From Promethearchaeia archaeon (GTDB taxonomy: Archaea > Asgardarchaeota > Lokiarchaeia > Sigyniarchaeales > SOKP01), in NCBI GenBank assembly GCA_029856145.1, contig JAHQWK010000004.1, positions 96,001-160,000 of the forward strand: a DNA stretch of 64,000 bases. Reading direction: 5' to 3'. The number at the start of each line of letters is the position of its first letter. Position 1 is the first letter of the stretch. The notes below the pieces were generated by a model. The model was not told where the DNA came from. It saw nothing but the letters and a program-made list of their open reading frames with translations, and searched no databases. Shown here piece by piece: positions 43,993 to 59,623 of the stretch. The translations under genes and the position numbers were made by a program.

Positions 43993-46512
43993 TTAAGATT
44001 GTCTTTCTAATTCATCAATTTCAGCTAATAGATCTAATTTCTTTTCTTTCCATTCATTTCTCATCTTGATATCACAAAAACAGGTATGGATTGCTCTCTC
44101 TCCTTTTTGTAGACTATCCTTAGCTAAATCAAACTTACCAATTTCTTTATAGCATTTTGCCATCTGAATATATGTATTATAAGTAAACCAACCCAATGGA
44201 TCAAGATCTAATGCCTTTTGAAAGTATTTTAATGCCTCTTCATACTCGCCAAATTCAGTGAGAACTTCACCGTAAGAATCATGATAATTACCATTATCAG
44301 GCGCAAGTTTTACTAATTCCTTTGCTGCTTGCAATGATTCTTCTTTCTCATCACGATAATGATGCCAGTATACTTTATTATTTAATATATCAAAATCCTT
44401 AGGATTTTTTTCCCATAAAACATCAATAATCTCTAAGCCTTTATCATAGTTATTCCTCTTCTTATATAGAAATGCCTTATGCGTCATAAGCTTAGTTTCC
44501 ATTTCTGGAAACGCTTTTATCCCCTCATCGATGGCTGCCAAAGCTTCATCAATCTTCTCATCGCTAGCTAAAATATCATATTTCATAAAGTGTAAATGGA
44601 GATCCTTAGGATCAAGCTCAATAGCAGTTTCAATCATTTCAAAACCCTCTTCATATTTTTCTAATTGTTTTAAAATTAGACCCTTAAAATGATAATACTT
44701 CGCTTTGTTCTTGTCAATATCCTCTAGCGAAATTGCCTTATCGAGATCATGCAACACTTCATCCACTCTCATATCATCCATATCTAATTGGTAAACAATT
44801 TTATAGCCCCAAATTAACGCTCTTGTAACATAGGATAAAGGATGGTCAGAATAATATTCATTTAGTATGTCACTGATTTTAAGTGCCTCATCGAATTCAG
44901 CTAATGTTATATGACAATAAACCTTAATAAAATTATAAGGTACAAAAATTTCCTCATCTTTTCTATTTGGATAGCTCTTTAATGCATTTTTCAAAAATTT
45001 AATAGCCCTTTTATGCCTGTTTGATAAACTTAACACAATTGCTTTCAAGAACAGAAAATCCAAATTATCAGGATTATTTTCAATCTCAGAATTGATCTTA
45101 TCTAAAACATTATCAAAATCCTTTTTTTTCATTAAATGTTTGGCATCATTAAACATCTCCTCAATTTCTGGTGAAGAAAAAAATGGTAGCACCCTTAATA
45201 TTGAATAATCTACATAATACTTGAATTGAGTTTGTTCCGAATCATCAGACTGGGAGCTATTAGATTGAAATACTTCTGGAATATCTCTCCACATTACTCC
45301 TTCTAATTTATCACGGGTATCCTCTAGCTTTCTTTCAGTTTCTATTCTATAAGCTAAATGTTTGATGTATTCCGGTAGAAACTCTCTTAAAGTATCTTTT
45401 AGCTCATCATTAAATAAATTATTACAAATCTCGTCTAAAATCGCATTAACTGTAAAACTGAAATCCATTGAAGCACCTCTACTAAGATTACTTTCATACA
45501 ATTTATTTAAGTAAGTAAATTTTGTAATGTGATCTTCAGTTATTGCTGAAAGAACTTTCTCTATCTTTTCATCCTCCTGGAAATAATAAAATTTATCCTC
45601 ATCAACTTCTATATTAAAAAATTTGGTCGAGTAGATATTTTTCTCTATAATTTGACGAATATTAAATTTCAATTCCAATGAATTAATTTGATATTTCTTA
45701 GAAAAATCAGCAGGTGAAATGTAAAAGGGATACTGATTTGGATGATTCATAGACAGAAACAGTAACACTTTGTTAAAATCTTCCTCTGAATCTAAGGATC
45801 CTCTTAAATTAGCATAAGGTAGTTTCAAAACATTGTTTAAAAATCGAAACTTGATATCCTCATCCTGGATATCATATTTTTCAAAAAATATAATTGTACT
45901 TTTCGTGATTTCCTCGATTCTCTTGCTTTCCTCATTCAATATTGATTGTCGGTCTAAATCATATAACTTCAACATCCGAGAATATTCCGATTTCCCCTTT
46001 TTAGTAATTCTGTATTCCTTATTCTCTTTTCTAATAAATTCCATCTGTTGAAGCTCATTTAGATTTTTCGATAAACTGGATTGATTAATCCTTAGTGGAT
46101 CATCAATAAAATCTGACCATTTGCAAAATGTATTATTATAAACCATCCAAAGGAGCCAATGATCATAATTTCGGTCGTTTGTTATCGCTTTTGGAGGATA
46201 ATTTAAATTTCTTTCTCCGTCCTTAGCTTTTGATAGATGGTTGTATCGTTCCGTACCTTTAGAGGTTATTCTATATACTCCTCTTTCCGGCTTTTCAACA
46301 TATTCGTTCACCTTTAACGAGTTCAGGTAATAGGATAAAGTAGATTGAGGAATACTTACGGGTTCATCTAAGAAATTTGCCCATTCAACAATCTCATTAT
46401 TTTTTAACATCCATAGTATAACATGTTCTATATTTGGTCGCTCAATCCCTATTTGCCGAAAGATTTCTTCAGGTGGATAATTTATTTCTTGAGTTCTACT
46501 CATAAAATTCAC
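43993..46512 (-). CDS. Tandem winged-HTH + TPR regulator A
   Basis: Two YPP...LWM..N....W..F....I.QS.LS..LN.L...Y.IT.KG wHTH repeats plus a third degenerate one; C-terminal TPRs (YHDSYGEVL...YEEAL..FQKALDLDP). Confidence 0.88.
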   Translation of the reverse strand: MNFMSRTQEINYPPEEIFRQIGIERPNIEHVILWMLKNNEIVEWANFLDEPVSIPQSTLSYYLNSLKVNEYVEKPERGVYRITSKGTERYNHLSKAKDGERNLNYPPKAITNDRNYDHWLLWMVYNNTFCKWSDFIDDPLRINQSSLSKNLNELQQMEFIRKENKEYRITKKGKSEYSRMLKLYDLDRQSILNEESKRIEEITKSTIIFFEKYDIQDEDIKFRFLNNVLKLPYANLRGSLDSEEDFNKVLLFLSMNHPNQYPFYISPADFSKKYQINSLELKFNIRQIIEKNIYSTKFFNIEVDEDKFYYFQEDEKIEKVLSAITEDHITKFTYLNKLYESNLSRGASMDFSFTVNAILDEICNNLFNDELKDTLREFLPEYIKHLAYRIETERKLEDTRDKLEGVMWRDIPEVFQSNSSQSDDSEQTQFKYYVDYSILRVLPFFSSPEIEEMFNDAKHLMKKKDFDNVLDKINSEIENNPDNLDFLFLKAIVLSLSNRHKRAIKFLKNALKSYPNRKDEEIFVPYNFIKVYCHITLAEFDEALKISDILNEYYSDHPLSYVTRALIWGYKIVYQLDMDDMRVDEVLHDLDKAISLEDIDKNKAKYYHFKGLILKQLEKYEEGFEMIETAIELDPKDLHLHFMKYDILASDEKIDEALAAIDEGIKAFPEMETKLMTHKAFLYKKRNNYDKGLEIIDVLWEKNPKDFDILNNKVYWHHYRDEKEESLQAAKELVKLAPDNGNYHDSYGEVLTEFGEYEEALKYFQKALDLDPLGWFTYNTYIQMAKCYKEIGKFDLAKDSLQKGERAIHTCFCDIKMRNEWKEKKLDLLAEIDELERQS

Positions 46513-46564
46513 ATTATAGTACTCTATTTAATATATAGTAACAACTTCTATTTAAAAGTTTCGT

Positions 46565-46635
46565 GTTCAGTATAAAATTAGAACTCCAACTGAACTTCGA
46601 ATTACAATTGAACTTTCACGAATAAAACTATATAT
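46565..46635 (+). promoter_or_regulatory. Operator array + TATA for peptide gene A
   Basis: GAACTCCA-ac-TGAACTTC (46581-46598), second degenerate copy (46599-46616), 11-bp spacer, CTATATAT (46628-46635). Confidence 0.7.
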
Positions 46636-46701
46636 TGAACTACAAACTTATGAGTATTAAGAAAAAAACAAATAAAAAAAACAAATAAGAGGTAAAAAAT
46701 A

Positions 46702-46779
46702 ATGAAAAAAATCGCAGAAAAAATAATTATAATAAAAAGTGGTACTTCAGCGTATAATCGAACTTATATTAGTTATTAA
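46702..46779 (+). CDS. Small peptide A, 25 aa: MKKIAEKIIIIKSGTSAYNRTYISY
   Basis: GAGGT RBS, own TATA, oligo-T tract downstream; homologous to peptide B at the equivalent position. Confidence 0.72.
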   Translation: MKKIAEKIIIIKSGTSAYNRTYISY

Positions 46780-46789
46780 ATATTAAAAA

Positions 46790-46806
46790 TTTTTTTTTTA
46801 TTTTTA
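46790..46806 (+). terminator. Oligo-T terminator after peptide A
   Basis: Long T tract about 10 nt after the stop. Confidence 0.6.
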
Positions 46807-46910
46807 TGAAAAATAATCTATTGAACAATTTACGATAATTAACCGTTATTATATGATCACTAAGAGAAAACTCTTTTCCATCTCCATATTGAATATGTTT
46901 ATACGAGTTC

Positions 46911-46931
46911 GGGCGAGACTCTGACTCGCCC
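46911..46931. other. GC-rich hairpin GGGCGAG-N7-CTCGCCC
   Basis: Perfect 7-bp inverted repeat; related copy at 55209-55245. Confidence 0.6.
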
Positions 46932-46962
46932 ATAAATTATTACATTAAAAGGTTGAAAAGTT

Positions 46963-47169
46963 ATGGATATAAAAAATACAAGAATGGTTGGAAAACATCA
47001 TTGTCCTGAGTGTAATTGTATGTATATTAGAATTGATAATGAAATTATTTCTTGTCCTGGATGTGAACTATCTTCAAAAGGTAATAGATCGATCATCAAT
47101 GAAGAAGAATGCCAGGAAAGAATTAGTTCAATTTCAGATTTAAACTTCAATAAAAGTTCATGTTCTTAA
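46963..47169 (+). CDS. Small zinc-ribbon protein
   Basis: CPEC...CPGC; AGGT upstream. Confidence 0.65.
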   Translation: MDIKNTRMVGKHHCPECNCMYIRIDNEIISCPGCELSSKGNRSIINEEECQERISSISDLNFNKSSCS

Positions 47170-47234
47170 TCTATAAATAAAAAAAGTAATTTAAATATAA
47201 TAAAAAAGAAAATCAATTAAATAGGTAATTACAA

Positions 47235-48548
47235 ATGGAAGTAAAAAGCACAAAAAAATCTTATTGGCACTATATGTATTTCTTGATTGGACAACAATTC
47301 TCAATGTTAGGCTCAATGATAGTTGGTTTTGTAATAACTTGGTGGATGGCCGGTAACGTTATTTTTCTTTCAATTTCAGTGTTTTTAATGTTTCTCCCGC
47401 AAATTATTGTGACTCCACTTTCAGGTGTACTTTCGGATAGATGGAATAAAAAGGCAATAATTGCAATATCAGATTCTGGTCAAGCAGCTGCAACTCTTTT
47501 ACTGTTTGTATTTTTTCTTTTCGACATCCAAAACATCGTTTTTGTTCTCGCAATAAATACATTTAGAGCAGCATTATTTGCATTTCAACTACCAGCTGTT
47601 CAGTCTTTAGTCCCTATTATGATCCCTAAAAAAAGTCTAAGCAGGGTTAATGGAATGAACTTTTTGAGTACTGGAGTTATTTTCACTATGGGACCAATGA
47701 TAGCGGCAGGTCTTATGGCTATTTTTCCACAAACAGAACTGATCTTTCTTCTCGATATTATAACATTCCTGATTGCTATGGTCCCATTGTTAATTATCAA
47801 AATTCCTAAAGTACACCAAACTACAGAAGAAGCCGTAAAAAAGTCAATGTTTAAGGATTTCAAAACGGGACTATTAACAATCAAAATGATTCCGGGATTA
47901 TTTGCTATGATTGCTTTCGCAATGGTATGGAATTTTATTAACAGACCTTGGGCTGTTTTGCTACCTAATTTTATTTATGATACTCACGGAGGTACTGCCT
48001 TAAATCTTGCGTTATTAATGACTGTGAGTCAAGTTGGGAACATAATAGGATCTCTAATCACCTCACTTAAGAAAACGTGGAAGCATAAAATTAAAATAAA
48101 CATAATTGGAGGAGCAATATTTTTTGTATGTCAAATCCCCGCGATTCTTGCACCTCAAGGAAATTTCATTATTATGATGATATCTCTATTTCCTGCATGG
48201 GTGATTTTTCCAATTACAGTATCTACGTATTTAGCAATATTACAGACGGTTGTTTCGAAAGATAAAATTGGTAGAATTATGTCGATTGATCACATGATAT
48301 CTATGGCAATTGCTCCAATTGGAGCACTTATATCCGGGCCATTAGCATTATTAATAGGAATAAGATATTTATTTCTAATCGCTGCAATCCTTGGAGTAAT
48401 TCATCCGTTTATCATTTGGGGTTTCACGAAAATAAGACAACTTGAAGTTATAGAAAGAGAAATAGTAATGAAAGCAGATGAAGTTGCCGAAGTAGAAGAA
48501 ATCACAGAGCTTACTGAAGTTATTCAAGTTATTGAACCAATAGAATAA
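47235..48548 (+). CDS. MFS transporter (MefA/DHA3-like efflux family)
   Basis: GQQFSMLGS, GVLSDRWNKK, PA.QSL.P..IPK..LSR.NG; about 12 TM. Confidence 0.92.
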   Translation: MEVKSTKKSYWHYMYFLIGQQFSMLGSMIVGFVITWWMAGNVIFLSISVFLMFLPQIIVTPLSGVLSDRWNKKAIIAISDSGQAAATLLLFVFFLFDIQNIVFVLAINTFRAALFAFQLPAVQSLVPIMIPKKSLSRVNGMNFLSTGVIFTMGPMIAAGLMAIFPQTELIFLLDIITFLIAMVPLLIIKIPKVHQTTEEAVKKSMFKDFKTGLLTIKMIPGLFAMIAFAMVWNFINRPWAVLLPNFIYDTHGGTALNLALLMTVSQVGNIIGSLITSLKKTWKHKIKINIIGGAIFFVCQIPAILAPQGNFIIMMISLFPAWVIFPITVSTYLAILQTVVSKDKIGRIMSIDHMISMAIAPIGALISGPLALLIGIRYLFLIAAILGVIHPFIIWGFTKIRQLEVIEREIVMKADEVAEVEEITELTEVIQVIEPIE

Positions 48549-48615
48549 TTTTTTTTTATTTTAATTTTTCATTTTTATTCTTTTTATTAGTATTTTTCAA
48601 TCTTCAATCTCTCCA

Positions 48616-48668
48616 GTTCATAATAAAGTATGAACTTCATATGAAGTCCGAATCAATAGTCTATATAT
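48616..48668 (+). promoter_or_regulatory. Third copy of the operator + TATA, upstream of a wHTH gene
   Basis: GAACTTCA-ta-TGAAGTCC (48632-48649), 11 bp, CTATATAT (48661-48668). Confidence 0.8.
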
Positions 48669-48801
48669 GAATTGAAAATCTAATAAGAATAAAGAATTTT
48701 AGGTTCAAAATTCGAATCATGTAGGAATAGGCTCCTACACTGAAGAAATGTAGCCTGTCATATTCCAATATTATTAATATCAATTAAAAGAGTGGTTTAA
48801 A

Positions 48802-49746
48802 TTGTCTGAAAAATCAGAAATCGAAAAAATATTAAAAGAACGCTCTAAATTTGAAGGTCTGGAAACATCAAATTCCGAATTTGTATTTATTGATAAAGTT
48901 GTTCAAGATTATGCACCAGAAATTGCTTTTTTATATCAATTTAGGGAGGACGAATCAGAAGAACAACAGATAAAAACAGGACGCCTTCATGAAAATCGCA
49001 TCTTAGGCATAATTCTAAAATTCTATTTAGAAGGAAAGAATAAGATCACTACTGGAGAAGTAGAACAGGAATATAAAAGATATTTTAGGGAAATTGCTCG
49101 ATCAACTACTTCAACATATTTAAATATGTTAAAGAAAGAATCTACTCTCTATACAGAAAGAGATGGTAGAGTAGCTTATTATATCTTTTATGAAGATCCT
49201 CCCGTTGATATTAAACCTTTTTGGTTTACTAGAATCTTTTGTATAGTTCCAGCTTACTTTAATAGAGCAATGAAATTTTCTAGTTTATACTTTAACGCTG
49301 AGAAATTTATCCAACAGTATATCAATGATATGGGTTATGGAGATAAAGAAATTTTAATAAGAAATTTCAAATTTATTATCGGTTTAATTGTATTAAATAT
49401 TTTGAAGAATCGAAGCTCTAAATGTATTGGTTGTCAGTTTAGTAAGAGGGAAATTTATAAGAAACTGGAAGAATTGATTAATGTAGCTATTAAAGATAGG
49501 TCTGATGTTTTACCAGGAGAATTATCGGTAGATTTGATTGAAAAGCATTCAGAAATACCAATATTTAAAGGAACTAATATTAAAGAAGATGAATTTAAAG
49601 GAAATATTATTAAGGAGATAGTAAGGAGCGCTGATATATTCAAAAAAGATTTAGATTTTCAAATTATGGTATCATCTCGAAGAAAAGATTCAAGATTAAA
49701 GCAAATACAAGCTTTAGAAGAAGACAGTGCAAAATTATCTTATTAA
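48802..49746 (+). CDS. Winged-HTH protein with CxxC
   Basis: ITTGEV...IARSTTSTYLNMLKKE..L..ERDGR..YY; CIGC. Confidence 0.75.
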   Translation: MSEKSEIEKILKERSKFEGLETSNSEFVFIDKVVQDYAPEIAFLYQFREDESEEQQIKTGRLHENRILGIILKFYLEGKNKITTGEVEQEYKRYFREIARSTTSTYLNMLKKESTLYTERDGRVAYYIFYEDPPVDIKPFWFTRIFCIVPAYFNRAMKFSSLYFNAEKFIQQYINDMGYGDKEILIRNFKFIIGLIVLNILKNRSSKCIGCQFSKREIYKKLEELINVAIKDRSDVLPGELSVDLIEKHSEIPIFKGTNIKEDEFKGNIIKEIVRSADIFKKDLDFQIMVSSRRKDSRLKQIQALEEDSAKLSY

Positions 49747-49778
49747 TTTTATTTAACACTTTTTTTTAATATCTTAAG

Positions 49779-49866
49779 TAGTGAAATTTTTCGCACTATA
49801 ATCACCTTTAAATAAGATATTCAATTTTATAAAATTAGAAAGTTGTGAAAAAAAAACTCACAACTT
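49779..49866 (+). promoter_or_regulatory. Two related palindromes flanking the thioredoxin TATA box
   Basis: TAGTG-N10-CACTA (49779-49798), TTTAAATA (about 49807), AAGTTGTGA-N9-TCACAACTT (49840-49866). Confidence 0.6.
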
Positions 49867-49894
49867 AGAAAAAACAATTAAATGTGTATTTTAA

Positions 49895-50311
49895 ATGCAG
49901 AATGTAGATGATAACCTAGAAATGTTGAGAATAAAAAAAGCCGAAGCTTTATTAAAACACCAAAAAATGCCAGAAACTATAGTAGAGATACAGTCTTCAG
50001 AAGAATTTCATAAATTATTAAAGAATTACACTGACAAAACTATTATTATAGATTGTTGGGCTGTTTGGTGCGGACCTTGCATGTTTTTTGCTCCCATTTT
50101 TAAGAAACTTCATGGAGAATTTCAAAAAGATTTCGTATTTGTAAAGGTAAACGTTGATGAAAATAATGCCATAGCAAGGGAGTATGGGATAACTGGAATC
50201 CCAACGACTTTATTTATTAAAAATAAAGAAGTTATAAATCAAGTTGTTGGAGCAATGAATTATGAAGGTATGAAGCAGGTATTAATAAAATTAAAACAAT
50301 CAGATAGTTAA
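49895..50311 (+). CDS. trxA: Thioredoxin
   Basis: WAVWCGPC, KVNVDE, GIPT. Confidence 0.95.
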   Translation: MQNVDDNLEMLRIKKAEALLKHQKMPETIVEIQSSEEFHKLLKNYTDKTIIIDCWAVWCGPCMFFAPIFKKLHGEFQKDFVFVKVNVDENNAIAREYGITGIPTTLFIKNKEVINQVVGAMNYEGMKQVLIKLKQSDS

Positions 50312-50362
50312 ATAAATACCCCTTTTTATTAATTTCTTTTTAAATTTTTAAGTTGATAACTA

Positions 50363-50827
50363 ATGGAAGTAATTGGAAACCAATTAAAAGAATTTGAAAT
50401 TATAGATGAGATATTAGAAAATAAAGATATTTTTTCTAGTACACGATTATTTAAATGTATTTTAGGCCTAAATAAAACCGAATCACAGGTATTTGGATAT
50501 ATTTTAAGAAATAAAGATGTAAGTACTTCTGAAATAGCAAAAGCTCTGAAGTTGGATAGAAGTTCAATTCAAAGAGCTGTTCAAGATTTATCTGAATTAA
50601 TACTTATTAATCGTAAGTCTATATCTATGAAAGAATATTCTAAGGTGAAAGGTAAGACTAATATCAAAAGGCAAGGATATCTTTATGTTTATAATGCTAA
50701 AGATATTAAGTCAATAAAAACCCAGTTTAAAGAACTATTAGATAAATGGTACGGTTCAATGTTAAAATACATTGAGAATCTCGAGAATCTATGTGAATGT
50801 TGTGGTTTCAAATTCGAACCATGTTAA
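50363..50827 (+). CDS. TrmB-like HTH regulator with C-terminal Cys cluster
   Basis: KCILGLNKTE, EIAKALKLDRSSIQRAVQDL, GYLYVY; tail LCECCGFKFEPC. Confidence 0.85.
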   Translation: MEVIGNQLKEFEIIDEILENKDIFSSTRLFKCILGLNKTESQVFGYILRNKDVSTSEIAKALKLDRSSIQRAVQDLSELILINRKSISMKEYSKVKGKTNIKRQGYLYVYNAKDIKSIKTQFKELLDKWYGSMLKYIENLENLCECCGFKFEPC

Positions 50828-50858
50828 ATTTTTTAATAGGCTTAAGAAAAAAAGTTTT

Positions 50859-51521
50859 TTAGAACATAAAAATTACCTTGAAAGGGAGATCTTCCAATAA
50901 TTCTCTTAGTTCTTTTTTAAATTCTTCCGAAATGGGTTCAAAACCATCTAGAGTATAATTACTTACCGAATAATGATCTGGCATAACATCTAATAAGAAC
51001 TCCTTTAATTTTTCCACATTTATAACGGTATCATTTAACCCTTTCAAAAACATTGTGTAGATGCCCAACTTCCCCTTAAATTTTTTACTGAATTTCAAAA
51101 TGCCCTCTAAAACATTTTTAGGTTCTATCGATTCCGGACACTTATTAATTTTTGAAAAATGAAAGTGATCAACAGTATTAAGATTAATAGCAACCAAATC
51201 ACATCCGTTAAATACATTTCGAGCTTCCTTATCTTGAAAGATTCCACAATTTAAATAAATACCAATTTTTTGATTTGGATATATCGTCCTAATCATTTTT
51301 GTAATCAACTTAAAATTTGAATGGGTTATTGAATCTGTTATTCCCTTAAACCATATTAAACTGGGAATCCCTCGAACATTAATACAATCTCTAATTTCAT
51401 AAAAAACTTCTTCAGTAAGGTTAATTAGGCCTGAGCCTTCACAGTAAGAACTAAAATCAACTGATAAAAGTGTTCCAAAATTAAAATTAAACTCGAACGC
51501 TTTTACAAACCTGTAACCCAT
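50859..51521 (-). CDS. Degenerate radical-SAM-like protein lacking CxxxCxxC
   Basis: DLVAINLNTVD...KIN.......VLEGI..F...F.GKL...TMFLKGLND resembles COG0731/TYW1-like barrels; only YC remains. Confidence 0.6.
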   Translation of the reverse strand: MGYRFVKAFEFNFNFGTLLSVDFSSYCEGSGLINLTEEVFYEIRDCINVRGIPSLIWFKGITDSITHSNFKLITKMIRTIYPNQKIGIYLNCGIFQDKEARNVFNGCDLVAINLNTVDHFHFSKINKCPESIEPKNVLEGILKFSKKFKGKLGIYTMFLKGLNDTVINVEKLKEFLLDVMPDHYSVSNYTLDGFEPISEEFKKELRELLEDLPFKVIFMF

Positions 51522-51547
51522 TTAAACCACATTTTTTATTTGCATTA

Positions 51548-54505
51548 TTAATTATTTTTTAATTCGTCTATCAATACCTTGATTTCAGAAATCAATATCT
51601 CCGCTTTTCGTAGATAATCCTCTCTTTCACTCGGATGCATCTTTTCTGTAAATTTTTTCCCTTTTTCATAATACTCGAGTGCGTTTTCAAATTTACCAAG
51701 TTCTTTAAAACATCTTCCCATTTTTAAGCATGTCTCGAATGCAAACCAACCAGTAGGTTCAAGATTCAAAGCTTCTTTTAATTTTTCAATAGCATCTTCG
51801 TACTCTCCTAAGGACATTAATATTTCACCATATGTATCATAAACGTTTCCATAATTTGGATTAAGACTTATCAGATATTCTGCAGTCTCAATAGCTTCCT
51901 TTCTTCTCCCTAAATACCCTAATATTATGGCTTTATTGTTAATAATATTAGTATCTTGTGGGTTTAATTCAAGGGCTTTATCAACAGCTTCTAAACCTTC
52001 ATCATACTGTTTTAGATGTACATAGATAAACGATTTTTGTAAGAGAAGACTTCTTTTCAAGGAGGGGTGGCTTTCTAACAAGTCATCAATCAAATTCAAA
52101 GCTTCAGATTCTCTCTTGGACATAATCAAATTGTATGTTTTCCTAGCATATAAAGAATTCAATCCGGGAACCAATTCAATAGCCTTATCAATAGATTCAA
52201 TAGCTTCATCATGTTTTCCAAGTCCATTAAAAACGTATGCTTGAAATAAAAGATATCTTGTTTTATCATATGTAAAAGGGTCAAAAGAGATTGTAAGTTT
52301 TATTAATTCAGTAAAAGTATCAATATTTGGTTCTTTTAATGTAAATCTATAAATCAAATTATAACCAAGTACAATGGCTTTTGTGATAAATGAAATTGGA
52401 TGATCAGGATAAAGAGTTAAAACTAGATTTGCAATTTCTAAAGCTTTTTCAAATTTCCCTCTTGCTAAATATGAGTATGCTAAAATAAAATAAGCTTCTG
52501 TATCAATTCCAGGATTCTTTTTAAGGGTATTTATATCGATTTCACTTGTTATCAGTTGCTTCGCCTCTTTATATTTATAAATCTCACAATAGTAGAGACT
52601 TCTCAAAAGTAGAATTTCTTTATCGTTTGGTTTCAAGGCGATTAATTGATTTATAACATCTAAGGGATCATTATAATCCTTTACCAATGTCATCCAATGA
52701 GTAATATAAATTATGAATTTTGTTTTTAATAGAAGAGTATTATCTGGATATTGAGATAATGACTCGTTAATAAGATGGAGTGCTTTTTCTCCTTGAAACA
52801 TTCTCAACAATATTTGAGCTTTATGACTAATTAAAACAACATTAGATGATTTCTTTAGTCCTTTTTCAACATTTTCTAAAGATCTCTCATAATTGTCCAT
52901 TAAAAAGTAAGTTAATGATTGCAATAAATATCCAATATACTCCTCTGGATATTTCTCAATAATTTCATTAGTTATATCAATTGAATCATCTAATTTATTA
53001 TTCGCTGTTGTTATAATATCTTTTATAATTAACTGATTAATGGTTTTTAACTTTGTGCTATTATTCTGATATAGTTCCCTCGCTTTAGAAGCTTTATTTC
53101 TGTATAATGTTTTTACAATTTTTTTAAATAGATCTATTTTATTCAGATAATAAGTCTCCTGAACTTCTTTTGAGTTCACAAAATACAATTTTGTTAGGTG
53201 CATAATACTTAGTACGCTAAAAATACTACCATCTAAGGTATAATGATACTCATCCTCATCTCCTGCTATTGGTTTTGAAGGTTCAAAAGTTTGGAATTCC
53301 TCAAAAATATTTTGCCAAACAAATCCTTCTAATTTTGCTTCGCTATCAACTAATTTTTTCTCAGTCTCAAATTTATATGCTAAATATTTAATATATTCAG
53401 GTAAAAATGATTTTAATGAGGGCTTCAGATGTTCATGGAATAATTTATCACAAATACCATCTAAAATTTCATCTAATAACAATCCTACATCTATCGTCAG
53501 GGCTTCATGAAATTTGTTTAGATATGTAAATTTAATGATATGTTTTTCCACAATCGCATTAAGAACTTTCTCAATTGTCTCATTCTTTTGAAAATAATAA
53601 ATCCCTCCTTGTTCATCTTCTACTTTAAAAAACTTAATATCAAAAAATTCATTATCTACAATCTCTCCTATATAATAATCTAACGTAGTTTTGTCAACTT
53701 TATACTTTAATGAGAATTCTTGAGGTGAAATGAATTCGGGATAATTATCTGGATGATTAATCGAAAGGAACAACAAAATTTTATTAAAGATTTCCTCGTT
53801 TTTTAACATTGGCTCTACTTTAGAATAAGAAAACTTTAAAATATGATCAAGATATCGAAATTTCAATTCATCATCTTCAATTTTATATTTCTTGAAAAAC
53901 ATTCTAGTTTTTTCTGTTATTTCTTCAATTCTCTTACTTTCTTGTTCTAATATAGATTGACGATCCAAATCGTAAGACTTTAATATTCTTAAATACTCAT
54001 TCTTTCCCAAGGGTGTTATTATATATTCCTTGTTTTCTCTTGCTACGAATCCATCATCTATTAATGAATTTAAATTGTTAGATAAGGAGGATTGATTAAT
54101 CGATAGTGGCTCTTGTTTAAAATCTGACCATTTGCATGAATAATTATTATAAAGCATCCACAAAATCCAATGATCATAATTCCTAATTTTAGTTATTGTT
54201 TTTGGTGGATACTTTAATCTCCTCTTTCCTAATTTCTTGTCATAGACTAATTCACTAAATCTATCTCTCCCTTGTGCTGTAATTAGATACTTGCCTTTTT
54301 CAGGTTTTTCAATATAATCCTTATTCATTAGTTTATTCAAATTACCTGATAATGTTGAAGGACTTATTTCTACCTCAAAATCCGACCACTCACAAATATC
54401 ATTATTACTGAGCATCCATAGTATTACATATTCAAAATCAGTTTTTCCCATTATTGGATTTAATATCTCTCCTGGAGGATATATGATTCCTTCTGATCTA
54501 CTCAT
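51548..54505 (-). CDS. Tandem winged-HTH + TPR regulator B (paralogue of A, more TPRs)
   Basis: Same wHTH repeats (NYDHW.LWM.YNN..CKWSDF, INQSSLS, YDLDRQSIL..ESKRIEEIT); many TPRs; ends EP.GWF like A. Confidence 0.88.
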   Translation of the reverse strand: MSRSEGIIYPPGEILNPIMGKTDFEYVILWMLSNNDICEWSDFEVEISPSTLSGNLNKLMNKDYIEKPEKGKYLITAQGRDRFSELVYDKKLGKRRLKYPPKTITKIRNYDHWILWMLYNNYSCKWSDFKQEPLSINQSSLSNNLNSLIDDGFVARENKEYIITPLGKNEYLRILKSYDLDRQSILEQESKRIEEITEKTRMFFKKYKIEDDELKFRYLDHILKFSYSKVEPMLKNEEIFNKILLFLSINHPDNYPEFISPQEFSLKYKVDKTTLDYYIGEIVDNEFFDIKFFKVEDEQGGIYYFQKNETIEKVLNAIVEKHIIKFTYLNKFHEALTIDVGLLLDEILDGICDKLFHEHLKPSLKSFLPEYIKYLAYKFETEKKLVDSEAKLEGFVWQNIFEEFQTFEPSKPIAGDEDEYHYTLDGSIFSVLSIMHLTKLYFVNSKEVQETYYLNKIDLFKKIVKTLYRNKASKARELYQNNSTKLKTINQLIIKDIITTANNKLDDSIDITNEIIEKYPEEYIGYLLQSLTYFLMDNYERSLENVEKGLKKSSNVVLISHKAQILLRMFQGEKALHLINESLSQYPDNTLLLKTKFIIYITHWMTLVKDYNDPLDVINQLIALKPNDKEILLLRSLYYCEIYKYKEAKQLITSEIDINTLKKNPGIDTEAYFILAYSYLARGKFEKALEIANLVLTLYPDHPISFITKAIVLGYNLIYRFTLKEPNIDTFTELIKLTISFDPFTYDKTRYLLFQAYVFNGLGKHDEAIESIDKAIELVPGLNSLYARKTYNLIMSKRESEALNLIDDLLESHPSLKRSLLLQKSFIYVHLKQYDEGLEAVDKALELNPQDTNIINNKAIILGYLGRRKEAIETAEYLISLNPNYGNVYDTYGEILMSLGEYEDAIEKLKEALNLEPTGWFAFETCLKMGRCFKELGKFENALEYYEKGKKFTEKMHPSEREDYLRKAEILISEIKVLIDELKNN

Positions 54506-54576
54506 AATAAAACTCAGTCTTATAAGATCTTATTTTGTTACATATATATTAGTTCATCTGCTTTTTAAGCTTTTCA

Positions 54577-54629
54577 CTTCAGACTAAAGTGTGAACTTCA
54601 TGTGAAGTTCGAAGTGCGAATCTATATAT
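54577..54629 (+). promoter_or_regulatory. Operator + TATA for peptide gene B
   Basis: Perfect palindrome GAACTTCA-tg-TGAAGTTC (54593-54610), 11 bp, CTATATAT (54622-54629). Confidence 0.8.
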
Positions 54630-54684
54630 TGGAGTTCAAGTTAAATAATCATAAGAAAAAAATGAAAAAAAAGTGATAAAAAAG

Positions 54685-54768
54685 ATGGTTCAAGTATTAG
54701 AAAAGAAGTCGAGGTTGATAATTATAACGAATGATACGGACAGATATCATTCGAGATATATAACTTAG
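54685..54768 (+). CDS. Small peptide B, 27 aa: MVQVLEKKSRLIIITNDTDRYHSRYIT
   Basis: AGTGA upstream (in-frame GTG at 54673 also possible), TAG-TAA double stop, oligo-T tract; homologous to peptide A. Confidence 0.72.
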   Translation: MVQVLEKKSRLIIITNDTDRYHSRYIT

Positions 54769-54774
54769 TAAAAC

Positions 54775-54783
54775 TTTTTTTTT
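54775..54783 (+). terminator. Oligo-T terminator after peptide B
   Basis: T9 tract just after the stop. Confidence 0.55.
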
Positions 54784-54814
54784 CCTATTTATATCAAAAT
54801 GGAGAGTGAAAAAT

Positions 54815-54955
54815 ATGGTTAAAATAATGATAAATTGTAGAAAATGTGGTAAAGAGATAAAACTTGACCTGAACGACTCGACGGCGCTTTGCCGAAAGTG
54901 TCGGAAGAATCATGCTGTAATTGAGGTAACAACAACGAGGAATTTTGATTTTTAA
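54815..54955 (+). CDS. Micro zinc-ribbon protein 1 (46 aa)
   Basis: MVKIMINCRKCGKEIKLDLNDSTALCRKCRKNHAVIEVTTTRNFDF; GGAGAGTGA RBS. Confidence 0.8.
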   Translation: MVKIMINCRKCGKEIKLDLNDSTALCRKCRKNHAVIEVTTTRNFDF

Positions 54956-55017
54956 TGAAAATAATAGAGAATAATAAAAAATTAAATAGAAAATGAAAAA
55001 ATAAAAGAGGGACAAAT

Positions 55018-55116
55018 ATGCCAAAAAAAATAAGGATACCCTGTATGAAATGTGGTAAAGAGATAAAGTTAAATTTTACCGAATCACGGGCAATTTGTAA
55101 GGATTGTGGAAGGTAA
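55018..55116 (+). CDS. Micro zinc-ribbon protein 2 (32 aa), paralogue of protein 1
   Basis: MPKKIRIPCMKCGKEIKLNFTESRAICKDCGR; GAGGG RBS. Confidence 0.8.
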   Translation: MPKKIRIPCMKCGKEIKLNFTESRAICKDCGR

Positions 55117-55208
55117 ATTTCGAGAGATTTTTTAAATCTTTCAAATTTTTTAATTGTTTAATTATTTAATTTTTTAATTTTTTTTACGGTTCTTTTCTTT
55201 TCCATTCC

Positions 55209-55245
55209 AAATTAAGGGGCGAGAGTTTATCTCACCCTTTAATTT
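55209..55245. other. Hairpin AAATTAAGGGGCGAGA-GTTTA-TCTCACCCTTTAATTT
   Basis: 16-bp stem with two imperfect pairs; core related to 46911-46931. Confidence 0.6.
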
Positions 55246-55422
55246 TATTGAAAAAATTGTTCTGAAATTCAGTTAATCCTTTTGATATTTAAAAAAGGAC
55301 ATTTTCTCTTTTGATTTAACAATTAATCTTAAAACATCGCAAATTCGTTACATAACTTTATATTGAGAAAAAAGAAAATATTTAGTGATTAAAGAGAAAA
55401 CCAGATCATATACATATTTTTT

Positions 55423-55956
55423 ATGATGAAATTTAAGAATTTGAGGCTGAGAATGGCATTATTTTTAGGATTATTAATGTTACTCATTCCTCAAGTGAGA
55501 GCCAATCCAGTTGTTGTCCCTATGTTTCAAATCCACCCATTTATTATGGGTATATACTTAAATTTTCTATTTGTTGCTACTCTTGCCATAGAAATCTTAA
55601 TCATTAAGACTTTTTTAAAAAACAATAAAATATTTGAACGTTCAAAAGAATTCTACAATTCAATTTTTCTTGTTAATCTAATTTCTTATCCTATGACGCA
55701 ACTTTTTGCATTTCTTATATATCAATCTTCTTTAGGTGATTATGATGTTGCCTCCGTGTTATTTAATTCTATTTTAATTGAAGTATTTCCTATTATGTTA
55801 GAATGTGTATTATTTTTGAAAATCTTTAAAAAACTAAATAGAACTGCTTGTTTTGTACGTTCAGTTAATAATAAGATGATAGTAAAATCCACAATTACCG
55901 CAAATTTAGCATCTTTCGCGTTTGGGTTTCTTACATTTTTCTTATTTTTAATTTGA
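55423..55956 (+). CDS. Multi-pass membrane protein with possible cleavable signal (VRA-NP)
   Basis: Hydrophobic helices with conserved-looking E and N.xS positions. Confidence 0.7.
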   Translation: MMKFKNLRLRMALFLGLLMLLIPQVRANPVVVPMFQIHPFIMGIYLNFLFVATLAIEILIIKTFLKNNKIFERSKEFYNSIFLVNLISYPMTQLFAFLIYQSSLGDYDVASVLFNSILIEVFPIMLECVLFLKIFKKLNRTACFVRSVNNKMIVKSTITANLASFAFGFLTFFLFLI

Positions 55957-55975: not shown

Positions 55976-57757
55976 ATGAGATATAATAATGATCATAAAT
56001 TTTTGAATTCTGCAATATGCATTGCTGTTATTCTAAATATCATTGTTTTTGGGATTTTTAGTTCTGATTTATTTATATATAGATACTCTCGTCCTTATGA
56101 TTGGAGGGTGGAAGTTCTTAAAGTACCAACAACGTCCAATCCTGTTACCATGGATCCTTGCGATTCATGGGATAGTGTATCAAATGATATACTTGATCAG
56201 GTAATAGAAACCCTAATTGCATATAATTTATCTGACCCAGAATTTCCACTTGTAGGAAGACTTGCCTCAGCTTGGGATTTCCAAAGCTCAAAATTTGGGC
56301 ATAATATAACTTTCACACTAAGACCAAATGTATATTTCCATGATGATTCATTACTTACTGGAGACGATGTTTTACATTCTTTCGCAAGAATTAATTACTT
56401 CGGTAATGCAACTGGTACCTTAACAGAGCCTGATCATATGGCTTTTCCACACTCTCTCTATAAATTTCCTGGTAAGCCTCCAGGTTTAACACCAATCTTC
56501 AATCATACCTTAAGCTTTGTTAATCCAACTGATAACTTAGAAGTTACTATTGTAATGAATGGTCCATTTGCTCCTGCTGAAGGATTATTAGCCTATGTAG
56601 CAAGTGGAATTGTACCTCTTAATTGTCCTGCAGAGGATATGTGGGAACTCGGTACGGATCTAGCCATTGGAACTGGTCCATTCAAATTAGTTAGTTATGT
56701 ACCAAATTCAGAGACTAGATTTGAGCGTTGGGATAGATATTGGGATGCTCCCGCTTATTGGGATGAAATTGTCTATGTCTATTATAGAGATGCTGTCACC
56801 GCTAATAATGCTATGTTGGCTGGAGATATTGACTACTTAGGCCAGGGTATTGCTGCACTAAAAGAATACTTTAATGCGAGTCCTTATATCACGGTAACTG
56901 GAGATGGAGTTGCTGATTTTATCAATGGTTCTATCTATTGGTATATTGCTTTTAACTCCCCTTATATAAATGTTACGTGGAGAAAAGCTATTTCATCTGC
57001 CTTTAACTATACATATCTTAACGAAGAAATAGATGAAGGCACTACTGTGAAAGCTAATTCCTTAGTTCCTCCCGGTTTTCCTGCTCATAATGCTTCATGT
57101 AAAGGTGGTGTTTTTAATATACCTTATGCTAGACTAAAAATGCAGAGCATGGGGCATGGTGTAGGATGGGACATTGGCAGTCAGGTTGGAGATATATTTA
57201 CTCCTGGTCTTGATGAAGCTCTATGGAAAGCAGCCGCATGGGTTCCAGATGTAGGTAACTTTACTGCAAATCAGTTTAATTTCCGGTTTAGACAAGGAAG
57301 TCATTGGATGGAACTCCTAATTGCTCAATTTCGAGATGATATGGACAGGATTGGAATTGAAATTAACGTGCAAATATTGACTTGGTGTGAATTCATAGAA
57401 ATGGGTGAAGGCTATCCTGACAGACTCCATATCTATCAAGTAGGTTGGGGTCCTGCTTACTTTGAAACCTTCACCATGATTGATCCATTAGTAAATCCCG
57501 CATCTTCATCAAACTTTGCTCGAATTGATAATCCTGAAATAAACACTTACTTAGCCCTTGCTGCTTCTGAAACCGATACTGCTACGAGATATGGATACTA
57601 TATGAAACTTCAGTATTTAATTATGGATAAATACTCTTACCATATGGGCATACAATTTGATAAGCTTTATCATGTTCATGCTGCTAATTTGAAAGGCGTC
57701 CCATATAATACTATGAGGAACTTATACTGGTATCCAACTTATCGCGAAACCGCATAA
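55976..57757 (+). CDS. Family 5 (OppA/DppA-like) solute-binding protein, copy 1
   Basis: PVTMDP, ETLI, LASAW, FTLRPNVYFHD, IGTGPFKL, WRKAI..AFNY; N-terminal TM. Confidence 0.92.
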   Translation: MRYNNDHKFLNSAICIAVILNIIVFGIFSSDLFIYRYSRPYDWRVEVLKVPTTSNPVTMDPCDSWDSVSNDILDQVIETLIAYNLSDPEFPLVGRLASAWDFQSSKFGHNITFTLRPNVYFHDDSLLTGDDVLHSFARINYFGNATGTLTEPDHMAFPHSLYKFPGKPPGLTPIFNHTLSFVNPTDNLEVTIVMNGPFAPAEGLLAYVASGIVPLNCPAEDMWELGTDLAIGTGPFKLVSYVPNSETRFERWDRYWDAPAYWDEIVYVYYRDAVTANNAMLAGDIDYLGQGIAALKEYFNASPYITVTGDGVADFINGSIYWYIAFNSPYINVTWRKAISSAFNYTYLNEEIDEGTTVKANSLVPPGFPAHNASCKGGVFNIPYARLKMQSMGHGVGWDIGSQVGDIFTPGLDEALWKAAAWVPDVGNFTANQFNFRFRQGSHWMELLIAQFRDDMDRIGIEINVQILTWCEFIEMGEGYPDRLHIYQVGWGPAYFETFTMIDPLVNPASSSNFARIDNPEINTYLALAASETDTATRYGYYMKLQYLIMDKYSYHMGIQFDKLYHVHAANLKGVPYNTMRNLYWYPTYRETA

Positions 57758-57808: not shown

Positions 57809-59623
57809 ATGAAATCTGAAATGAAAGAGTTAGCGATATTTATTTTAATAATTTTAATTATTTTTTCTGGTTTCGGAAACGTTATCATGTTACTGATGTA
57901 TAGTCCTCCGCATTCTCATCCTACTTTCGAAGTACTTAAAGTAGCAAGAACTTCAAATCCAGTTACTATGGATCCATGTGATTCTTGGGATAGTGTGTCA
58001 AATGATATGCTTGATCAGGTAATGGAAACCCTCATTGCTTATAATTTATCTGACCCAGAATTTCCGCTTGTAGGAAGACTTGCCTCAGCTTGGGACTTCC
58101 AAAGCACGCCTTTAGGCACGAATATCACATTCCAATTACGACCAAATGTATATTTCCATGATGATACATTACTTACTGGAGAATGTGTTATCCATACCTT
58201 TACAAGAATAAATTTTTTTGGCAATTGGACAGGGACATTAACTGCTCCTCATCATATGGCAGCTCCACACTCTCTTTATAAATTTGCTAATGGAACACCA
58301 ATCTTTAATGAAACGCTCAGTTTTGTTAATCTAACTAACCCATTAGAAGTTACTCTTGTATTAAATGGTCCATTTGCTCCTGCTGAAGGATTACTAGCCT
58401 ATACAGCAAGTTCAATCGTACATCCTTATTCTACTCCTGTAAATGAGATGTTAGAACTCGGCGAGGATCGAGCCATAGGGACTGGTCCATTCAGATTAGT
58501 TTATTATGTACCAAATTCAGCGATTTGGTTTGATCGTTGGAAGAGATATTGGGATGGTCCCGCATATTGGGATGAAATCGTCTATGTCTACTATAGAGAT
58601 GCTGTCACCGCTAATAATGCTATGCTGCGTGGAGATATTGACTACTTAGGTCAGGGTATTGCTGCACTAAAAGAATACTTTAATGCGAGTCCTTATATCA
58701 CGGTAACTGGAGATGGAGTTCATGATTACATCAACGGGGCTACTTATAACTGTATTGTATTTAAATCAGAATGGATCAATCGTACATGGAGAAAGGCGAT
58801 TTGTCATGCTTATAACTATTCCTATCTTATCCATAATATCATGGAAGACACAGTTGTGAGAGCTAATTCTTTAGTCCCTCCAGGTATCCCGGGTCATAAC
58901 AGTTCAGTTGTAGGTGGTACGTTCAATATTACAAAAGCAAGACAGATTATGCAGAGCATGGGTTATGGTTATACGGATAATGTTCCTTGGGACGTAGGAT
59001 CTCAGGTTGGAGATGTGTTCACCCCTGGTGCTAATGAAACTCTATGGAAAGCAGCAGAATTTATACCAAACGTAGGAAACTTCTCTGGTAATGTATGGAA
59101 TTTCTATGTAAAACCAGGAAGCCTTTTATTGGAATTTCTAACTCAACGCTTTATAGAGGATATGGATTTAATTGGAATTAAGGTAGAATATTATTGGTAC
59201 TGGTGGGCTGAATGGCCGATACCACTATGGTGGTGGAAAGGAATCCATTTATGTTGGTTGAGTAAATATCCTAATTATTATGAAGCTTTTAATATGATTG
59301 ATTCATTAGTCAACCCAGATTCTACCCTTTATTCCGAAACTTTAAATATACTTGATTCAATAGTCGACCCAGCATCTACCCTCAATATCCTTAAAATTAA
59401 CAATACAGAAATAAATACTCTTTTAGCTACTACTGTAGCTGAAACTAGTACTGCTACAAGATATGAATACTATAAGAAACTTCAATATTTAATTCATGAT
59501 AAGTACTACTACCATATGCCTCTGTTTTATGACAAGCTCTACTATGTTCATGCTGCCACCTTGAAAGGATTTCCATATAATTGTATGAGGAATTTATACT
59601 GGTATCCAACTTATCGTGATTAA
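57809..59623 (+). CDS. Family 5 (OppA/DppA-like) solute-binding protein, copy 2
   Basis: Same motifs; tandem paralogue. Confidence 0.92.
   Translation: MKSEMKELAIFILIILIIFSGFGNVIMLLMYSPPHSHPTFEVLKVARTSNPVTMDPCDSWDSVSNDMLDQVMETLIAYNLSDPEFPLVGRLASAWDFQSTPLGTNITFQLRPNVYFHDDTLLTGECVIHTFTRINFFGNWTGTLTAPHHMAAPHSLYKFANGTPIFNETLSFVNLTNPLEVTLVLNGPFAPAEGLLAYTASSIVHPYSTPVNEMLELGEDRAIGTGPFRLVYYVPNSAIWFDRWKRYWDGPAYWDEIVYVYYRDAVTANNAMLRGDIDYLGQGIAALKEYFNASPYITVTGDGVHDYINGATYNCIVFKSEWINRTWRKAICHAYNYSYLIHNIMEDTVVRANSLVPPGIPGHNSSVVGGTFNITKARQIMQSMGYGYTDNVPWDVGSQVGDVFTPGANETLWKAAEFIPNVGNFSGNVWNFYVKPGSLLLEFLTQRFIEDMDLIGIKVEYYWYWWAEWPIPLWWWKGIHLCWLSKYPNYYEAFNMIDSLVNPDSTLYSETLNILDSIVDPASTLNILKINNTEINTLLATTVAETSTATRYEYYKKLQYLIHDKYYYHMPLFYDKLYYVHAATLKGFPYNCMRNLYWYPTYRD

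Follow-up and report, generated by a model that had tools for sequence, protein, structure and literature searches.

On comparative sequence evidence, two unannotated micro-genes of an Asgard archaeon, here called A and B, are real, conserved protein-coding genes and members of one homologous micro-protein family, whose genes of about 22-30 residues lie by a family of TPR-bearing winged-helix regulators in four or more genera, all from a single family of Lokiarchaeia (Promethearchaeota). The micro-proteins are candidate ligands that may feed back on the neighbouring TPR regulator, a reading to which we give somewhat less than an even chance. Both genes lie in a stretch of 64,000 nucleotides, referred to as the window throughout, which covers positions 96001-160000 of contig 3 in a genome of 3.55 Mb and 30% GC. 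The features of the two cassettes are collected in Table 1.

Table 1. Features of cassettes A and B, in window coordinates.
Feature	Position	Strand	Basis or remark
Regulator A, 836 aa	43993..46503	-	Pfam winged HTH and TPR; AF2 model, pLDDT 79; Foldseek
Operator-like direct repeats GAACT (46582, 46592, 46610), 5' of A promoter	46582..46614	.	Repeats retained in orthologous loci
TATA-like box CTATATAT, A promoter	46628..46635	+	Common to all eight paralogous intergenic regions of the genome
Shine-Dalgarno of gene A, GAGGT	46689..46693	+	SD-like sites of A and B lie 7-8 nt 5' of ATG
Micro-protein gene A	46702..46779	+	25 codons and TAA; family I ('ORF2' type); read in window; orthologues in relatives
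T10 run after gene A	46790..46799	+	Archaeal-type terminator, 10 nt past the stop
Zinc-ribbon micro-protein, 68 aa, 3' of gene A	46963..47169	+	CxxC...CxxC; synteny conserved
MFS transporter (MFS_1/MFS_3), end of cassette A	47235..48548	+	Pfam; retained downstream at regA-type loci of relatives
B-type palindrome and TATA, further copy	48631..48668	+	5' of 314-aa winged-helix-like gene 48802-49746
Regulator B, 985 aa, paralogue of A	51548..54505	-	About 52% identity over the first 440 aa; longer TPR array
Palindromic operator TGAACTTCA-NN-TGAAGTTC (perfect), B promoter	54592..54610	.	11 bp 5' of TATA box
TATA-like box CTATATAT, B promoter	54622..54629	+	Common to all eight paralogous intergenic regions
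Shine-Dalgarno of gene B, GTGAT	54673..54677	+	Derived from ORF1
Micro-protein gene B	54685..54768	+	27 codons and TAG; in-frame ORF1/ORF2 fusion; read in window
T9 run after gene B	54775..54783	+	Terminator
Zinc-ribbon micro-protein, 46 aa, 3' of gene B	54815..54955	+	Read in window
Second zinc-ribbon micro-protein, 32 aa, 3' of gene B	55018..55116	+	Read in window

Both open reading frames were re-read in the window, and their coordinates and sequences match exactly those given in an earlier note on this DNA. That note had called them unannotated, which agrees with the absence of A, B and their orthologue from a collection of 15 billion proteins. Pfam scans of A, B, the upstream frame of relatives termed ORF1 and the regulator middle domain, both described below, returned no family above threshold. 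Each gene is the first cistron behind a TATA promoter with a paralogue-specific operator directly upstream. A Shine-Dalgarno site and a T-run occur together at 151 of the 42,641 small ORFs of the genome (0.35%), and throughout the micro-protein family a T-run follows every member, with the stop codon 0-10 nt before it. Peptides A and B are hydrophilic and basic and have no signal sequence; their hydrophobic stretch is four residues long, in keeping with the earlier remark that a classical Sec signal is lacking. Folding of the A transcript is no better than that of its shuffles (z=+0.25), no alternative or competing RNA structure was found in it, and Rfam showed nothing above noise for window 46400-55500 or for the contig-23 locus described below. 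Between the A terminator and the zinc-ribbon gene lies a GC-rich hairpin (GGGCGAG-N7-CTCGCCC, window 46911-46931), the stem of which is conserved, with a changed loop, in the closest relative (L031).

That the frames are maintained as proteins, which the earlier note had suggested from residue spacing, is borne out by ten ungapped pairs of orthologues of equal length, defined by locus and taken from related lineages. Substitutions at codon positions 1, 2 and 3 number 33, 33 and 59, and pN/pS is 0.35 in frame (Fisher p=9e-10), whereas the two out-of-frame readings give 1.11 and 0.97. By region, the ratio is 0.71 in the N-terminal 6-10 residues (not significant), 0.23 in the Ile core and 0.46 in the C-terminal part (p=3e-4). 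Since the synonymous codons of the Ile run vary freely among ATA, ATT and ATC, it is the amino-acid sequence of the run that is conserved and not its DNA. Stops and frameshifts are not common in orthologous loci: the ORF is intact in about 24 regA-type loci with a canonical promoter, one of them with a shortened tail, and at regA-type loci that lack the ORF the upstream region is rearranged and holds no decayed remnant of it.

The homology of A and B, which the earlier note derived from a shared pattern, stands on grounds other than their pairwise similarity, which is not decisive by itself: the local score of 38 ranks third to fourth of the 42,641 small ORFs and lies just below the 39-43 of the best chance matches. 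We accept homology because a profile built from 28 family members of relatives, with A left out, finds A at E=1.1e-6 in a search of the same 42,641 small ORFs, where the best non-family ORF has E=0.05, and because both genes occupy the same position in paralogous cassettes. The spacing that had been noted is indeed identical in the two peptides: counted from the final Ile of the run, position +4 is Thr, +7 and +11 are Tyr and +12 is Ile. The individual elements of the pattern fare differently across the family. Its Thr is not conserved, and its EK is no family feature: the EK of B falls within the first six codons, which stem from the fused ORF1, so that its match to the EK of A is a coincidence and not homologous. 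The Y-x3-Y element, on the other hand, is the deepest-conserved part of the family, and appears in the tail motif [GA]-Y-[NH]-x-x-[YF]-x-x-[YF]-end (aromatics at -8, -4 and -1) in four genera, three of them further to that of the window. Members share a basic N-terminus, an invariant run of three to four Ile that is usually followed by [KRT]-N, and this aromatic C-terminal tail.

A census of ORFs of 15-40 aa with a Shine-Dalgarno site and T-run beside regulator paralogues yielded 51 ORFs, most of which fall in one family; small ORFs of this kind behind a regulator-type promoter recur at dozens of loci in about 25 genomes and in three further genera. Within the genome of the window (G000) the profile identified a third member on contig 23 (102758-102829, minus strand; L143), beside regulator C. 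A fourth lies on contig 15 (21749-21820, minus strand; L147), with a C-type operator and no adjacent regulator. Both stand behind near-identical C-type promoters made up of the palindrome CGAACTT-N-AAGTTTCG and a TATA box, and peptide C is directly followed on the same strand by a gene for an M3 oligoendopeptidase F (L143:4286-6076, minus strand; contig 23, 100785-102575). Peptide subtypes track regulator subtypes. Rab-like small GTPase genes flank regulators C and D (contig 23, 97518-98090 and 104907-105464), and another is found near the contig-15 peptide. A second micro-peptide family, of 24-30 aa and ending in ...N-P-[KR]-K-[YF]-x-[FY]-G-x-K-D-L, accompanies regC-type regulators of relatives (L022, L088, L097, L098, L102, L119), where it often shares the intergenic region with a peptide of family I. 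It resembles the L-G-D-L-N-P-R-Y-F-E-E segment of some ORF1 proteins and was not found in this genome.

Comparison with relatives also accounts for the structure of genes A and B. In relatives the same promoter drives ORF1 and then ORF2, the latter being the homologue of A and B (22-30 aa, followed by a T-run). ORF1 encodes a protein of 70-92 aa (for example L031:4338-4586, G008 contig 39, with orthologues in L033-L036 and L045-L071), labelled 'hypothetical' where it is annotated, with an acidic N-terminal half, a basic middle that carries N-[AP]-[KR]-Y-x-[EQ]-E, and the tail [FY]-R-N-[YFH]-G-[VI]-[FYH]-end. At locus A about 285 nt are deleted relative to syntenic relatives, which removes the entire ORF1 and places ORF2 behind the ORF1 promoter and Shine-Dalgarno region. 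At locus B one deletion, of 257 or 242 nt relative to L033 or L036, joined ORF1 codons 1-6 in frame to about codon 10 of ORF2. A tblastn search of this genome with 36 ORF1 queries from relatives returned only noise, the sole significant matches coming from an unrelated membrane-protein query. Two independent deletions have thus removed ORF1 and left ORF2 in frame directly behind the promoter, a natural experiment in which the part that seems indispensable is the Ile run together with the aromatic tail. Gene B has changed further, as it ends in TAG-TAA where the orthologue reads TAT-TAA (window 54766-54771), a single change that drops the conserved terminal Tyr; with this last aromatic residue missing, B may be decaying. 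As judged by its genes, the putative regulator-peptide circuit is reduced in this genome, with ORF1 gone at both loci and B minus its last Tyr.

The regulator genes start about 190 bp from A and B on the opposite strand, in a back-to-back, divergent arrangement. In the AF2 model of regulator A, two winged helices and a coiled coil are followed by a third winged-helix-like domain, from which a helical linker leads to a long, canonical TPR superhelix. Pfam matches of the regulators are confined to MarR/HTH_34/HTH_45-type winged helices and canonical TPR families. A Foldseek search with regulator A gave 479 matches at E <= 0.001; among the best 49 of these the TPR domain finds OGT, SPINDLY (SPY), APC/C, Tom70 and the BBSome (E 3e-11 to 4e-08), and no RRNPP receptor occurs among the same 49, nor did the Pfam scan indicate an RRNPP relation. 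The middle domain is specific to the regulator family: it turned up in 31 of 40 genomes from the taxonomic family of the window, against 1 of the 160 sampled elsewhere in the phylum. A complex prediction for regulator A residues 186-836 with peptide A, from alignments of 15 rows each, scored 0.00, a value that for a partner of fewer than 30 residues falls outside the calibration and that we count neither for nor against a complex.

Besides one broken copy, the genome has seven complete paralogues of the regulator. Four of these eight face genes for secreted or solute-binding proteins in place of a peptide gene, so the regulator family does not need an adjacent peptide. The broken copy (contig 12, 36795-37169, minus strand) retains only about 125 N-terminal residues, with an internal TAA, and still faces a family-type promoter and a solute-binding-protein gene. 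All eight divergent intergenic regions next to the paralogues follow the same design of operator repeats and TATA box. The B-type palindrome with its TATA box is found at four promoters of the genome, that of B, the further copy in the window, contig 3 position 170004 and contig 8 position 21030, and its presence at three promoters besides that of B suggests a small regulon of regulator B. Behind these further promoters lie the 314-aa gene, a gene for an MBL-fold-like protein and one other gene. Upstream of regulator D (L143:1985-2150, minus strand, contig 23) there is no peptide ORF behind the D-type promoter; the locus has instead a GC-rich stretch that ends in a strong hairpin and a U-run, with a fold z of only -1.3 and no Rfam match, and relatives show comparable GC-rich stretches at their D-type loci (L092, L115, L116, L121, L123).

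The two cassettes differ in the genes that follow the peptide. Downstream of A the order is the GC hairpin, the 68-aa zinc-ribbon gene and the MFS transporter, and downstream of B it is two zinc-ribbon micro-genes, a small membrane protein and two family-5 solute-binding proteins. The latter are tandem, OppA/DppA-like genes (window 55976-57757 and 57809-59623) with no permease or ATPase gene nearby, and their arrangement is not syntenic in the closest relative. Directly after regulator B lies a gene for a radical-SAM-like protein of 220 aa (window 50859-51521, minus strand), which is syntenic in two relatives. It has no CxxxCxxC motif, its Pfam match of 21 bits lies below the 29.5-bit cut-off, and the missing cluster motif makes it probably a 'dead' radical-SAM fold. 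A thioredoxin gene is also found near cassette B. A derivation of the peptides from the cassette zinc ribbons by loss of Cys, suggested by a shared motif in which a hydrophobic run precedes Asn, was rejected, as the hhalign match spans 5 residues with a probability below 1%.

The mechanism that we put forward as possible begins with the regulator binding its operator and activating the micro-gene. In archaea an operator upstream of the TATA box is typical of activators, and from the position of the operators 5' of the TATA boxes the regulator probably switches the micro-gene on. The micro-protein would then bind the TPR superhelix of the regulator through its free aromatic C-terminus and the beta-strand-like Ile run, and such binding would close a feedback loop, either of autoinduction or of antagonism. 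Canonical TPR arrays of the OGT/Tom70/APC type are known binders of peptides and C-termini. The reading of the micro-proteins as ligands draws on the conserved free aromatic C-terminus, on the tracking of peptide subtypes with regulator subtypes, and on the retention of ORF2 through two deletions. Several points count against it: a hydrophilic, basic peptide would also suit a nucleic-acid or protein partner other than the regulator, half of the eight regulator paralogues face no peptide gene, some regA orthologues have a rearranged upstream region and no peptide gene, the contig-15 member stands beside no regulator, neither Pfam nor the Foldseek matches inspected relate the regulator to RRNPP receptors, and B is missing the terminal aromatic residue. 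Among the alternatives raised in the earlier note, an intracellular inhibitor or activator peptide is nonetheless our best guess and the best remaining candidate.

The regulons also contain peptide-handling genes, namely an MFS exporter (A-type), two family-5 solute-binding proteins (B) and the M3 oligoendopeptidase F (C). The MFS exporter of cassette A and the OppA-like proteins by cassette B could serve export and re-import, as in Rgg/SHP systems, and the micro-proteins would then leave through the linked MFS pump and later be sensed by the TPR regulators, in a form of cell-to-cell signalling. We regard this extension as improbable. The peptides are hydrophilic and carry no export signal, which makes action inside the cell at least as likely as export and re-import.

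Other explanations of the same loci have to be weighed against a ligand of the regulator. The micro-proteins may be plain output, that is, regulon members that the regulator switches on and that act elsewhere without binding it; their targets might be the co-transcribed zinc-ribbon micro-proteins, the nearby small GTPases or another cellular component. This would fit the use of the same operators for the 314-aa gene, the MBL-like gene and secreted and solute-binding proteins, the hydrophilic, basic character of the peptides with no export signal, the constant presence of zinc-ribbon genes after A- and B-type peptides, and the Rab-like GTPase genes that flank the C and D regulators. Yet the peptide genes are those closest to the regulator and match it in subtype, the pattern expected of cognate pairs, the long TPR sensor domain needs a ligand for which no other candidate is encoded nearby, and the C-type and contig-15 members lack zinc-ribbon genes; on balance we hold pure output to be rather unlikely. 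The earlier note had also raised a leader peptide, in which translation of the Ile run would sense Ile-tRNA supply or ribosome speed and so set read-through of the oligo-T into downstream genes. The Ile run is the most conserved element, the stop lies 0-10 nt 5' of the T-run in all members and co-directional genes follow A, B and C, all of which such a leader would explain, but selection acts on the amino acids of the tail (pN/pS 0.46, p=3e-4), the very last residue of which is conserved, and the transcript has no competing RNA structure (z=+0.25). Moreover, the downstream genes vary (zinc ribbon and MFS transporter; zinc ribbons; oligoendopeptidase F) with no link to isoleucine, no co-directional gene follows the contig-15 member for about 900 nt, and in relatives ORF1 comes first and the peptide gene is the second cistron. 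The leader peptide therefore fits poorly, and we consider it very unlikely.

An equally slight chance is left to a RiPP or a secreted antimicrobial or signal precursor, modified for example by a Tyr cross-link and exported by the MFS pump. Conserved Tyr/Phe positions, the MFS_3-type transporter in cassette A and the radical-SAM-like and thioredoxin genes near cassette B speak for it, but the radical-SAM-like protein (50859-51521) lacks CxxxCxxC and matches Pfam below threshold, no maturase stands beside A, C or the contig-15 member, and peptides of only 22-29 residues with a weakly constrained N-terminus of 6-10 residues (pN/pS 0.71) are short for a leader and a core and seem to have no room for a recognisable leader. 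With no conserved maturase, this suggestion of the earlier note fits the loci poorly as well. Least credible of all, to the point of being nearly dismissed, is the view that A and B are chance ORFs in an AT-rich spacer or part of a non-coding small RNA. ORFs of such sizes are common in DNA of 30% GC (42,641 in the genome), and A and B, taken as a pair, are no more alike than the best chance matches; against this stand the frame-specific purifying selection, the profile E of 1e-6 for A, and the conservation of open frame, Shine-Dalgarno site and terminator over four genera, and for a small RNA the missing structure signal (z=+0.25) and the lack of an Rfam match. To mechanisms beyond those listed here we assign a small residual probability.

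Whatever the function of the peptides, these Asgard archaea combine a TPR-bearing transcription factor with unannotated genes of 22-30 residues, in multiple copies and in a lineage-specific manner, and an entire class of conserved genes is overlooked by the standard annotation of their genomes. We know of no peptide-based regulatory or signalling circuit in Archaea, and a full-text literature search turned up no account of RRNPP-like systems in archaea, nor any of this regulator family. Should export and sensing both prove true, this would be the first cell-to-cell signalling of the peptide-pheromone type in Archaea, independent of bacterial RRNPP systems, and it would have arisen in the closest lineage to eukaryotes, where each genome would carry many pherotype-like pairs of regulator and peptide. 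The clear operators make the circuit testable with synthetic peptides and recombinant protein, with no need of culture.

Several known systems share parts of this arrangement. The one-domain zinc fingers of Haloferax type are likewise tiny, mostly unannotated archaeal regulators, and such genes are present in the cassettes (46963-47169, 54815-54955, 55018-55116), whereas peptides A and B have no Cys and their profile-profile match to these zinc ribbons covers 5 residues at below 1%. The ilv leaders of enterobacteria resemble the micro-genes in being short ORFs with a run of Ile codons (3-4 invariant here) that end before a terminator with further genes after it; here, in contrast, alternative hairpins are absent, the tail is selected as protein and none of the downstream genes has to do with Ile. 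In archaea, termination does not depend on a hairpin. SinI/SinR of Bacillus provides an example of a small intracellular protein whose gene is adjacent to and co-regulated with that of the transcription factor on which it acts, with no need of export, but SinI, at 57 residues, pairs by way of a helical hook that is homologous to SinR, whereas the peptide here is unlike its regulator. Closer in the putative mode of contact are Hop, CHIP and Tom70 (EEVD-COOH) and PEX5 (PTS1), in which a canonical TPR superhelix is likewise paired with a partner whose last residues are conserved, here aromatics at -4 and -1; the motif here is, however, aromatic and basic and neither acidic nor SKL, no carboxylate-clamp residues were identified in the regulator, and binding is putative.

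The most extensive likeness is to the Rgg/SHP and ComR/ComS pairs of streptococci, which belong to the RRNPP systems. These differ from the pairs described here in several respects: RRNPP receptors have an XRE-type HTH (or are phosphatases) where two to three winged helices are found here; the TPR array of our regulators is long, canonical and of the OGT/APC/Tom70 kind and not like that of an RRNPP receptor; the known peptides are hydrophobic, those of the present family hydrophilic, and any export, processing, re-import or binding of the latter is putative; and the archaeal host uses TATA promoters and oligo-T terminators. Common to both is a DNA-binding protein with a C-terminal TPR-type sensor and a divergent peptide gene of about 22-25 codons, the product of which has a basic N-terminus, a short Ile-rich stretch and an important C-terminus. 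As in RRNPP systems, the peptide gene is adjacent to the receptor gene, at A and B at about 190 bp, and this adjacency is conserved in relatives. Furthermore, the regulator's operator, a candidate one in our case, lies at the peptide promoter, target genes follow the peptide gene, and there are many paralogous pairs. Since neither the Pfam scan nor the best 49 Foldseek matches showed homology of the regulators to RRNPP receptors, the A/B-regulator system is best regarded as a probable analogue of Rgg/SHP and ComR/ComS and not as a member of their family.
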